Origin: a virus
Lineage: Duplodnaviria > Heunggongvirae > Uroviricota > Caudoviricetes
DNA: 12,073 bases
IMG/VR virus record: IMGVR_UViG_2671181085_000001
Location: 1-12,073 of that record
Direction: 5' to 3' (one strand)
In this document: positions 1-3,000 of the stretch, piece after piece
How positions within the stretch are numbered: the first letter of the stretch is position 1
How the letters are laid out: each line of letters starts with the position of its first letter
Made by a program: the position numbers

Positions 1-3000
1 TGGAAGTGAACAGCACAGACACTGCGGTATGATAAAAAAAGCCGCCAGCGACAGGAATAGACGCTGGCGGTGCTAATACCCATGGAAATACAAAAGCAAG
101 ATTCTTTCGTGCAGAGCCTTCTTTTTAATGAAAACACTTCCTGTTGTCAATAATAACGGTAAGAAATTAAAAAACGCCAGTTGCCGTAAGCGACTGGTGG
201 GGGAGCGCCATGGACACTCCGAAGAAATGGTGCAGTGAGTGTTTTTAAATGAAAAATATTCTTATTATCAATATGTGTCAGCGGTATTTGCGGGGTAAAA
301 AAATCCACCAGTAAGCACAGGGAGAAATGCGTCATGCTTCTGGTGGAAATGCAACTGCGGTGAGGTTTTATTGTTATATTGGTAAATTTTCTACACAAAA
401 GCGATTCTTAATGTCAACACGTTTGACAGGGAATTGTTGGGCACTCAGAGTAACTACACGAGGCTGTCAGTGGAGCACTGGCAGCCTTTTTCATGTTGTG
501 AGCTTCCGGATTGCGGGAGGCGGGGTATGTACCAGATGGAAAAAATCACAACAGGTGTGTCATACACCACGTCAGCGGTGGGAACGGGCTACTGGTTCCT
601 GCAGTTGCTGGACAGGGTTTCCCCGTCTCAGTGGGCGGCAATAGGCGTGCTGGGGAGTCTGCTGTTTGGGCTGCTGACATATCTGACGAACCTGTATTTC
701 AAGATTAAAGAAGACCGTCGTAAGGCGGCACGGGGAGAGTAGGTGATGAACCATGAAGAAATGAATCAGCGCTTCAGTCGTCTGGAAAATGAAATTGCTG
801 AACTGAATAAAAAGCTGTCGGTGCTGATGCCTTCTGAAGATGAAAAAAAACGCCGCGATGAGCAGTTTGCTGCGTTTGACGATTATTGTCGGAAAGTGAT
901 GAGCAGAAATCTCGCAGAGTGTTTCAGTATTCATAATGATAATTTCAGTGAGCTGGAATGGGAGTGTAACCGGCCATCCTTTGTTGTATCCGGTGATGAC
1001 GGGAAAATCACCATATCAGAAAATGGAAAAGTAACACTGCCATCGCACCAGCACAGTGAGACGCTCATTGAATTTGCCATTGATTACCTGAAGAACAATA
1101 AAAAACAGGGGCTGATGCAGCGCATTGGTCGTTGCATGGGGTATCTGCAGGTAGCCGCTGAGATTGAAGCGCTGGCCAGTGGTGCGGACAAGGATTCAGT
1201 TGTGCGGGAGGCACTTCTTCGTGATTTTGATAATCCGCCTTTTAAAAAAGTGCCGGCTTACTGGCTTCATCCCGGACTGACTTATCTGAAAGTGCGTATT
1301 TAGTGGGCCTGGGACAGCGGCTGAATATTTAATATATCCATGAACACAAAAATCAAATACGGCCTGTCGGCTGCCGTTCTGGCGCTGATTGCCGCAGGGG
1401 CTTCTGCGCCTGAAATCCTCGACCAGTTTCTGGATGAAAAAGAAGGCAACCACACCACGGCATACCGTGATGGCGCGGGTATCTGGACCATCTGCCGTGG
1501 AGCCACCCGGGTGGATGGTAAGCCTGTTATTCTTGGCATGAAGCTGTCGAAGGGGAAATGCGACCGGGTTAACGCCATTGAGCGTGATAAGGCGCTGGCA
1601 TGGGTGGAGAAAAACATCAAAGTGCCACTGACTGAACCCCAGAAAGCGGGGATCGCGTCATTCTGCCCGTATAACATTGGCCCCGGTAAGTGTTTCCCGT
1701 CGACGTTTTATAAACGAATTAATGCAGGAGATCGAAAAGGTGCCTGCGAAGCGATTCGCTGGTGGATTAAGGACGGTGGCAGGGACTGCCGTATTCGCTC
1801 AAATAACTGTTATGGTCAGGTATCCCGTCGTGACCAGGAGAGCGCGCTGGCGTGCTGGGGAATCGACAGATAAGCAGAATATTTTGCTGATAAATGACGC
1901 TTGCTCACGCGGGCAGATAACACGAAATCCTGCGAACTGGCAAAATGCAAGTGAATAAAGTCAGGAAGATTGTTTTACGCAGAGGCACCGTAATGGTGTC
2001 TTTGTCATTTCTGCGCTTCGCACAAGCGTAAATAAACCAAAGAACCTTTCAGGATGAGCCCTGGTGGATAACCGGCAGTGGTCTGGTTAACCCTCTTTGG
2101 GCTGGTTATTCCTGTGCGCAGGGTTCATCACTAAAAGGAAATAACCGATGAATATGATGACCCTGCCGTTTCACGGCGATTCTCTTTATGTGGTTAACCA
2201 TAATGGCGAACCGTATGTTCCAATGAAACCGATCGTTGAAGGGATGGGGCTGGACTGGAAAACTCAGTATCGCAAGTTAAAACAACGGTTTAATAGCTGC
2301 ATGGTCGAAATGACCATTCAGCTACCAGGTGATACCCAACGTCGCCCTGTTATCTGCCTGGCTTTACGTAAACTTGCTGGCTGGCTTCAGACTATCAGCC
2401 CAAATAAGGTTAAGCTCAAAATCCGAGACAAGGTGATCCAGTATCAGGAAGAGTGCGACGATGTTCTCTATGAATACTGGACGAAGGGTTTTGTCGTTAA
2501 TCCCCGTCGAATGAGTGTGATGGAAGAACTCAATCAGGCTTGTGCTGACATGAAACGGGATAAAAACATTGCCAGTGTGTTTGCTACCGGGCTGAATGAG
2601 TGGAAACAGGTTAAAGCCGCGCATGTATCAAAAATCCGCACATTGATAAACGAAGCGAATCTGCTGATTGATTTTGTCCTGGCTGATACAGGCAAAGGGA
2701 AAATAACAAAGGCGGATTGATGGAGTGGTGGCTAATGATATCGGATAAACTCATAACGCTGGCGAAGATCCTCTGTGTAATCGTCGGCATTCCATTTTTA
2801 GTCATGCTGGTTGCCATTTTCTTTTCCACCGCCTGGCGAGTCCTGACGTTATCGGGACTGGTGGAGTGAAAGAGAGATGAACCGTGTTCTGTGTGTGGTG
2901 ATTATTGTCCTGCTGGTGGCCTGTGGTGCGCTTAGTCTGGGGCTGAATCATTACCGTGATAACGCCATCGCCTACAAAGAGCAGCGCGATAAAGCCACAT

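Follow-up and report, generated by a model that had tools for sequence, protein, structure and literature searches.

A structured sense-strand RNA leader with crossing covarying helices precedes accessory genes of the lambdoid phage late operon

Why are two genes of one phage, whose proteins are largely unrelated, preceded by the same stretch of noncoding sequence? The question is raised by the 12,073-nucleotide (nt) virus record IMGVR_UViG_2671181085_000001 (hereafter the window, meaning this whole stretch of DNA). It is a lambdoid phage late region, with a lysis region 98% identical to Shigella phage POCJ13 and many Shiga toxin (Stx)-converting phages close to it. An Ant-like gene and a rha gene each stand here behind a copy of one leader. 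A preliminary description of the window had taken 2012-2138 and 3383-3507 for diverged structured repeats belonging to a noncoding RNA with genuine covariation, and both propositions were borne out. Segments 2012-2147 (copy A) and 3383-3516 (copy B) have a column identity of 78% on alignment and are diverged copies of one noncoding element. Two blocks, AGAACCTTTCAGGATGA (2041 and 3413) and GGTTCATCACTAAAAGG (2122 and 3491), are identical in both copies and occur exactly twice each in the window; block matches expected by chance number 0.01-0.03, and two matches were reached in 0 of 200 shuffles. We are highly confident that the leader is a functional, structured, sense-strand RNA family.

Covariation and crossing topology

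From 5′ to 3′, the leader is built of a hairpin (H0) with box a as its loop, an AU-rich linker, box b, strand c, segment d, hairpin H3, box b′, a conserved GGCYGG motif, d′, box a′, and strand c′, which ends in the Shine-Dalgarno (SD) sequence; the start codon follows 7-12 nt after the SD. Strand c opens with the anti-SD sequence CCU(U), 1 nt after box b. In copy A (all features of both copies are on the + strand), H0 occupies 2013-2029, with loop CGCAC (2019-2023) as box a, and box b (CAAAGA, 2038-2043) has its partner b′ (TCTTTG) at 2094-2099. Strand c (2045-2063) forms the 5′ side of the closing helix, has its anti-SD CCTTT at 2045-2049, and is followed at 2066-2089 by d (GGA, 2066-2068) and H3 (TAACCGG, 2069-2075, with CTGGTTA, 2083-2089). 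The conserved motif, here GGGCTGG, and d′ (TCC, 2110-2112) fill 2100-2112, where a second CTGGTTA (2102-2108) is a possible alternative partner for the 5′ strand of H3. Box a′ (GTGCG, 2114-2118), the partner of the H0 loop, is followed by c′, the 3′ strand of the closing helix (2119-2139), with SD AAAGG at 2134-2138 and AGGA at 2136-2139, and the ant start codon is at 2148. In copy B, H0 (CGCGC/GCGCG) occupies 3384-3400 with loop TCACAC (3390-3395) as box a, and box b (CACAGA, 3410-3415) has its partner b′ (TCTGTG) at 3464-3469. Strand c (3417-3435) comprises the anti-SD CCTTT (3417-3421), GATGA (3425-3429), and CCTTG (3431-3435), and d (AGGAT, 3436-3440) and H3 (3441-3458) take up 3436-3458. 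The conserved GGCCGG (3470-3475) and d′ (ATCCT, 3477-3481) lie at 3470-3481; box a′ (GTGTGA, 3482-3487) directly adjoins both d′ and c′ (3488-3507, SD AAAGG at 3503-3507), and the rha start codon is at 3517.

Covariation was assessed on a model-guided alignment of 92 distinct sequences (A3) and on an independent metagenome sample alignment (A4). Over the whole structure, 92.5% of cells in A3 were paired, compared with 35-46% when partners were slid, and both sides had changed in 31 of 46 pairs, compared with 17.2 ± 2.1 in shuffles (reached in 0 of 500 shuffles); the result was replicated in A4. Compensating changes preserve H3 (TAACCGG/CTGGTTA in copy A against CCGGT/ATCGG in copy B) as well as the closing helix c-c′, as had been proposed. 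The H0 helix, likewise put forward as covarying, does exist and has compensated variants (GCGC/GCGC, GCGT/ACGC, and GTGC/GCAC), although the difference between copies A and B is partly a register shift and not pure covariation. Since many of the pairs are G-U, the structure belongs to the sense-strand RNA.

The best-supported pairings, a-a′ and b-b′, had been missed by the preliminary description and were first indicated by RNAalifold. Neither is part of the covariance model, so fitting of the alignment did not involve them. In A3, a-a′ was 96.5% paired and b-b′ 98.3% paired (slid control for both together: 15-69%), and A4, as an independent replicate, gave 97.6 and 99.0%. Nine fully compensated variants of b/b′ were found (CACAGA/TCTGTG, CTCAGA/TCTGAG, CACCGA/TCGGTG, CGTCGA/TCGACG, CAAAGA/TCTTTG, CCCAGA/TCTGGG, CCTTGA/TCAAGG, CCATAGA/TCTATGG, and CAAGAG/CTCTTG), together with a series for a/a′ (TCACAC/GTGTGA, TCGCAC/GTGCGA, TCTCAC/GTGAGA, CCGCA/TGCGG, CGCTC/GAGCG, CGCCC/GGGCG, and TCGCAT/ATGCGA). 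A hairpin around b′ (H4, GCC/GGC), suggested by minimum free energy (MFE) folding, was only 78% paired and is probably not real. Pairing of the 5′ strand of H3 with the distal GGCYGG (H3alt) was 92% paired with one compensated pair, and is possible as an alternative, not established.

Leaders that reside together in one prophage nearly always differ in their a and/or b boxes (compared in the window, 2002-2160 and 3374-3529, and in loci L007, L022, L046, L056, L112, and L209), a pattern that suggests avoidance of mispairing among tandem leaders of a transcript. Two chimeric leaders (L068:2509-2664 and L323:115-266) have 5′ boxes that mismatch their 3′ boxes, e.g., b CAAAGA against b′ TCTGTG; these rare singletons are probably recombinants within the leader and amount to natural mutants.

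Helices a-a′ and b-b′ are nested with each other and cross both c-c′ and d-d′. As c-c′ is the helix that sequesters the SD, the RNA must be bistable or pseudoknotted. The simple on/off hairpin switch of the preliminary description is thus right about SD sequestration and incomplete about the rest of the fold. The closed hairpin presents a′ as a bulge adjoining d′, and b′ in its apical loop. Only 1 nt separates box b from the foot of the closing helix and about 5 nt separate b′ from the apical junction, with about 22 bp between the two ends; moreover, conservation does not extend to the internal loops of this helix, and in P22-type leaders the outer helix is continuous over 10 bp. From these tether lengths and unconserved loops we infer that b-b′ and a complete closing helix cannot coexist, while either state may leave room for a-a′. 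The sequences of b′ and d′ overlap in one diverged lineage (L036:3114-3246). The leader is a compact natural RNA with two crossing helix sets and unusually clean covariation.

Spread, surroundings, and earlier sightings

With either copy as query, BLAST matched over 300 phage records, among them 933W, VT2-Sakai, P22-like Salmonella phages, and Klebsiella phages. Scanning viral contigs for the motif yielded 120 loci with 68 distinct leaders, from which a covariance model was built and used for further search. Matches to the model total about 180 copies in phage, genome, and metagenome contigs, with further, strongly diverged copies in the same phages and with members in Raoultella, Enterobacter, Citrobacter, Siccibacter, Pantoea, Entomohabitans, Photorhabdus, and Arsenophonus; the hosts are Stx phages, P22-like phages, and prophages of at least 10 Enterobacterales genera. 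The independent metagenome sample added 83 copies. In a pattern scan of a genome collection, about 60 of the 84 rows came from unrelated phyla by chance, and the covariance model separated the true Enterobacterales hits from them; a locus search with a single TerB-like protein as query returned near-identical loci only and added no diversity. Two short contigs outside this host range, from Xanthomonas pisi (L254, NZ_JPLE01000286, 392 bp; 108.9 bits) and a Ca. Nanosynbacter metagenome-assembled genome (L224, JARKOR010000234; 117.0 bits), carry leaders with the same scores as E. coli-phage types and are probably assembly or binning contaminants. Among complete E. coli genomes, 809 of 5426 carry the leader (median 2 copies, up to 8). 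It has no annotation in these, i.e., in about 15% of complete E. coli genomes, nor in the Stx phages 933W and VT2-Sakai or the model phage P22.

The genes behind the leader are of at least seven unrelated types, encoding KilA-N proteins (with ORF11CD3 or P63C tails), Rha, P22_AR_N Ant, KilAC/ANT, TerB-like proteins, and three unrelated HNH_3 endonucleases. The leader is therefore not specific to antirepressors. The earlier view of an element shared by two antirepressor types did not hold, and the diversity of downstream genes makes an immunity-specific role unlikely. When, and in what dose, the antirepressor-like proteins and nucleases that follow the leader are made can bear on prophage induction and on conflict between phages. 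The leader is found immediately behind the Q gene, within the lysis cassette, or in the stretch from Rz to the packaging genes, always in late-operon orientation and often in tandem (leader-gene, leader-gene). Leader and gene travel together as a portable cassette.

Upstream, an intrinsic-terminator-like hairpin with a T-run precedes H0 in 70 of 82 distinct contexts, ending 5-25 nt (in some about 49 nt) before it, and these terminators are several unrelated sequences. The terminator-like hairpin of copy A (1979-2011, +; stem 1979-1989/1995-2005; -16.1 kcal/mol), which had escaped notice in the preliminary description, has a T-rich tail and ends right before the leader; this GGCACC-GTAAT-GGTGCC hairpin precedes all A-type copies. 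That expression from copy B may depend on read-through had been proposed earlier; there is indeed a strong intrinsic terminator after Rz (3345-3371, +; stem 3345-3365, T-run 3366-3371), and dependence on read-through is suggested by this layout.

That the RNA was undescribed, as had been thought possible, agrees with our searches, with one prior sighting. None of the 4227 covariance models of Rfam 15 matched the leader at gathering score, and at E < 10 over 1850-3600 there were only chance matches, none of them relevant to it (weak asX2, isrJ, and Phe-leader matches are to the Rz terminator hairpin only). The C4 (RF01695, clan CL00128) and isrK (RF01394) models did not match the leader even at E < 10, nor did the models of AgvB, AsxR, and STnc100. 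As a positive control, the same library detected C4 (74 bits) and isrK (76 bits) in a related prophage locus, L112, and also STnc100 and tRNAs in related prophage loci. In L112, the genuine C4 and isrK lie side by side near the Q gene (12854-13041, -), in a prophage with three leader copies. STnc100 (RF02076) was found just 3′ of the TerB-like gene that stands behind a diverged leader copy (L046:4059-4263; L112:8953-9157, -; L007:3723-3925, -), which makes the order after Q terminator, leader, TerB-like gene, STnc100.

Literature searches on AgvB/AsxR, Pas small RNAs, rha/IHF, and RNA motifs near KilA-N or HNH genes turned up no account of the leader except for P22F. This is an abundant 89-nt RNA of P22-infected Salmonella that ends 6 nt before the rha start (PMC13397905, 2026). 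It was reported as an abundant read cluster of unknown function, with no family, structure, covariation, or link to other genes and phages (PMC13397905). The P22F sequence is contained in L002:3550-3640, within the P22 leader member (L002:3498-3655; 105 bits with the family model), and spans strand c to the SD, without the 5′ third (H0, a, and b). By this sequence match, P22F is the same locus and RNA as the P22 member of the leader family.

Translational control and competing readings

The pairing of the SD with the CCTTT box, as first proposed, was recovered in the MFE folds of both copies, each a long hairpin that base pairs CCUUU with the AAAGG of the SD, and is backed by covariation over the 92 sequences. 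For copy A, the MFE was -50.1 kcal/mol (z = -3.1 relative to shuffles). MFE folding of 37 lineage representatives predicted a paired SD in 33, its partner being almost invariably the CCU(U) beside box b. Enforcing a-a′ and b-b′ left the SD paired in only 9 of the 37. In P22-type leaders, an extra CCUG(M)C insert takes the anti-SD role because the outer helix has slipped, and in Photorhabdus leaders CCUUUUCA is paired to UGAGCAGG; occlusion of the SD thus persists though the occluding sequence differs.

For copy B, the closed fold has -45.8 kcal/mol and the best fold with b-b′ enforced -42.7 kcal/mol, a figure that omits the a-a′ duplex (about -8.6 kcal/mol) because nested folding cannot include it; the two states are therefore close in energy. 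On the nascent chain, b-b′ is in the MFE fold once b′ has emerged (copy B, lengths 97-108 nt; 22 of 37 representatives), and the closed hairpin becomes the MFE fold only once c′ has been made.

We modestly favor a leader that acts as a two-state translational gate for accessory genes of the late operon. Each copy would be a cis-acting structured mRNA leader of about 125-135 nt, of a family that travels with accessory genes inserted into the Q-dependent late operon of lambdoid phages. As an intrinsic terminator stands immediately before the leader, its transcription is probably limited to polymerase that has passed the terminator; in these phages this would be Q-modified late transcription, the genes being otherwise silent. 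Translation would then be the regulated step. In the OFF fold, an irregular long hairpin (c-c′ and d-d′, capped by H3) would pair the SD with CCU(U) and block ribosome loading. In the competing fold, the 5′ address boxes a (in the H0 loop) and b would pair with a′ and b′ inside the hairpin region, and because b-b′ excludes the full closing helix, its formation should pull the anti-SD away and free the SD. Since the polymerase reaches b′ ahead of c′, nascent RNA is expected to adopt the open form first and to relax later to the closed form; a trans-acting trigger may or may not take part. The outcome would be limited, context-independent translation from a very heavily transcribed operon, of proteins that are potentially harmful to host or phage (antirepressor-like DNA binders and HNH nucleases). 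The covarying a-a′ and b-b′ must serve a purpose in their own right, and competition with the SD-sequestering helix is the simplest one, being consistent with topology, energies, and order of synthesis. The gate would offer a testable account of how phages tame toxic accessory genes in a very highly transcribed operon.

Such a gate has parallels. SD-pairing hairpins precede mobile nuclease genes embedded in phage operons also in T4, where Gibb and Edgell reportedly found homing-endonuclease genes such as mobE and I-TevI to be silenced on read-through transcripts and a late promoter within the hairpin to relieve the block. The leader differs in that no promoter is seen in it, that it is a conserved family of about 130 nt with extra covarying long-range pairings, and that it also serves non-nuclease genes. 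Hershko-Shalev and colleagues are said to have described, in 2016, a translationally inactive antirepressor mRNA isoform of Gifsy-1 (orf45-anrP) that is opened by pairing with IsrK (RF01394). The likeness lies in an inactive mRNA form opened by an RNA of the same locus; IsrK, however, is a separate terminated small RNA beside Q, whereas the activating and target segments of the leader share one molecule. Translational riboswitches and RNA thermometers likewise have two alternative 5′ leader folds, one of which occludes the SD, but the leader matches no Rfam family and, as its unpaired nucleotides are poorly conserved between lineages, has no evident ligand pocket. With SD-anti-SD pairing predicted to be conserved across lineages (33 of 37), the leader works most like other SD-sequestering leaders; it is most aptly regarded as a new family in a known regulator class, distinguished by its portability before unrelated genes, its fixed place behind terminators, and its crossing helices.

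Several points weigh against the gate. We identified no trigger for switching, and the poor conservation of unpaired nucleotides between lineages, which speaks against a ligand pocket, leaves the two states without an evident purpose. The SD is unpaired in the MFE folds of 4 of the 37 representatives. A fold more stable than shuffled controls, expected from the preliminary description, was found for copy A, but the MFE of copy B (-44.3 kcal/mol, z only -1.1) is not clearly better than shuffles. The assignment of ON and OFF rests on nearest-neighbor energies, which are blind to pseudoknots, and on steric reasoning about how far the linkers reach; in principle, b-b′ and an anti-SD/SD helix of 5 bp could coexist as an H-type pseudoknot, leaving the SD unfreed. 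Finally, kinship among the sequences inflates the shuffle statistics; neither the slid controls nor the numerous independent pair types are subject to this.

A more specific form of the gate, which we entertain tentatively, is a self-contained, address-coded riboregulator in which loop a and box b serve as a built-in anti-anti-SD that opens the leader's own SD-sequestering hairpin on fresh Q-modified read-through transcripts only. If so, the short lineage-specific boxes would keep the leaders of a polycistronic RNA orthogonal to one another, leaders that share an address but lie in different prophages of a cell could activate or titrate each other in trans, and Stx and P22-like phages would have an RNA layer of prophage cross-talk over antirepressors and nucleases.

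The crossing helices need not be alternatives. All of them, or all but the outermost part of c-c′, might form together in a single compact pseudoknotted fold with a-a′ and b-b′ as tertiary clamps, a domain that binds a protein or, riboswitch-like, a small ligand, or that insulates the ribosome-binding region from upstream sequence. Every helix covaries and no set is evidently weaker; the OFF hairpin leaves a′, as an unpaired bulge of 6 nt, and b′, in the apical loop, both exposed for loop-loop contacts; d′ and a′ are contiguous and could stack; and the leader is present in many insertion contexts, all of which would suit one fold. We nevertheless think it rather unlikely. Box b is tethered by 1 nt to the base and b′ by about 5 nt to the apical junction with about 22 bp between them, the internal loops that might bend the helix are unconserved and the P22-type outer helix is unbroken, b′ overlaps d′ in the L036 lineage, and few unpaired nucleotides are conserved across lineages.

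Less probable again is that the hairpin is chiefly an element of processing or stability, i.e., an RNase III or RNase E site at which the late transcript of more than 20 kb is cut into cassette mRNAs, leaving a stable fragment, with translational control secondary. P22F would be such a fragment: discrete, 89 nt long, beginning inside strand c, ending 6 nt before the rha start, and accumulating during infection. Furthermore, the linker from H0 to b is AU-rich and variable, as RNase E sites are, and the terminator hairpin directly upstream would protect the upstream fragment. However, the ends of P22F were called from read alignments and not mapped, stable decay intermediates are expected from any strong hairpin, and cleavage does not require a-a′, b-b′, or the conserved SD pairing.

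The preliminary description had likened the leader to the C4 RNA of P1/P7. In P1/P7, c4, processed to about 77 nt and acting in trans, has two short complementary boxes, lineage specific, with a2/b2 as targets, and one target box overlaps the ribosome-binding site of the gene that comes first behind it. C4 (RF01695) and the leader have in common an antirepressor operon controlled by RNA from its own leader and short phage-specific complementary boxes, and the leader has the same layout of two upstream boxes complementary to two downstream boxes; this is analogy, not homology, and the lineage-specific boxes are the one part of the comparison that stood. A truly C4-like action, in which the 5′ module (H0 loop a and b) would be released as a small RNA, act in trans and in cis on a′/b′ of the same address, and couple or exclude expression between prophages, is quite improbable. 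In its favor are those boxes, the presentation of box a in a hairpin loop, as in antisense kissing complexes, and the almost invariably different boxes of co-resident copies, mismatched recombinants being rare singletons. However, the Rfam models that miss the leader detect true C4 and isrK members in a related prophage, and duplex prediction between those C4/isrK RNAs and the leaders of that prophage gave no special complementarity (z from +0.1 to -1.9). Moreover, no reported small RNA covers H0 to b (P22F covers the other half), and the boxes do not overlap the SD: they pair within one leader of about 100 nt, and in copy B a′ ends 16 nt and b′ 34 nt before the SD. The leader also differs from C4 in serving many non-antirepressor genes, in the late operon and not in the immunity region.

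That the segment is no RNA element at all, but a conserved DNA linker for recombination between phage modules, the remnant of a small open reading frame (ORF), or a moron promoter, is hardly credible: conserved blocks do flank a variable gene slot and chimeric leaders occur (L068), yet only RNA pairing accounts for the compensatory changes and G-U pairs, so covariation largely excludes DNA-level and coding explanations. A small-peptide gene was rejected. Copy B does have a 25-codon ORF at 3426-3503, but the same frame meets a stop after 5 codons in copy A and after 3 in P22, and the spacer between CCTGTG and GGTTCAT is 5 nt in copy A, 6 nt in copy B, and 7 nt in P22, so that the conserved CCTGTG is read in three different frames; no frame is conserved among homologues. 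On the + strand, we detected no sigma-70-like promoter within or ahead of the two copies (1900-2150 and 3300-3520), which does not fit a moron, a promoter-gene-terminator cassette, with its own sigma-70 promoter, and the gap between terminator and H0 is only 5-25 nt in most copies. Ideas of a CsrA or an IHF site were dropped because the motifs vary across lineages.

Coding sequences (CDSs) have been drawn across the leader in public records. The RefSeq P22 rha CDS begins at a GTG within it (L002:3576; P22 NC_002371 39575), and several Stx and Salmonella phage records (hits H60-H63, H80, H82, etc.) have "hypothetical protein" CDSs there. These spurious starts and proteins look like over-annotation of a noncoding region. 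The alignments could support an Rfam entry for the family.

Neighboring genes in the window

The lysozyme gene (1340-1873) is followed, behind copy A, by the Ant-like gene (2148-2720, +; P22_AR_N and ORF11CD3). A strongly hydrophobic 49-codon ORF (MEWWLMISDKLITLAKILCVIVGIPFLVMLVAIFFSTAWRVLTLSGLVE; 2720-2869) lies between ant and Rz in the lysis cassette, and its start overlaps the ant stop (TGATG). Rz (2877-3314) contains an Rz1-type lipoprotein ORF (lipobox VVSAC) at 3082-3261 in its +1 frame, the arrangement expected of a two-component spanin. Behind copy B stands the Rha-family gene (3517-4059, +; Phage_pRha and ORF11CD3), and beyond it lie other small genes, then an HNH gene and the genes for the terminase subunits. 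The HNH-motif ORF (5742-6107) is without a leader copy and lies 5′ of the small terminase subunit (terminase subunits from 6398), an arrangement as in HK97-like cos phages. The proteins behind copies A and B are otherwise unrelated, yet both end in a C-terminal ORF11CD3 domain; ORF11CD3 is absent from the HNH and TerB-like proteins and present in many of the KilA-N and Rha proteins behind other leader copies.

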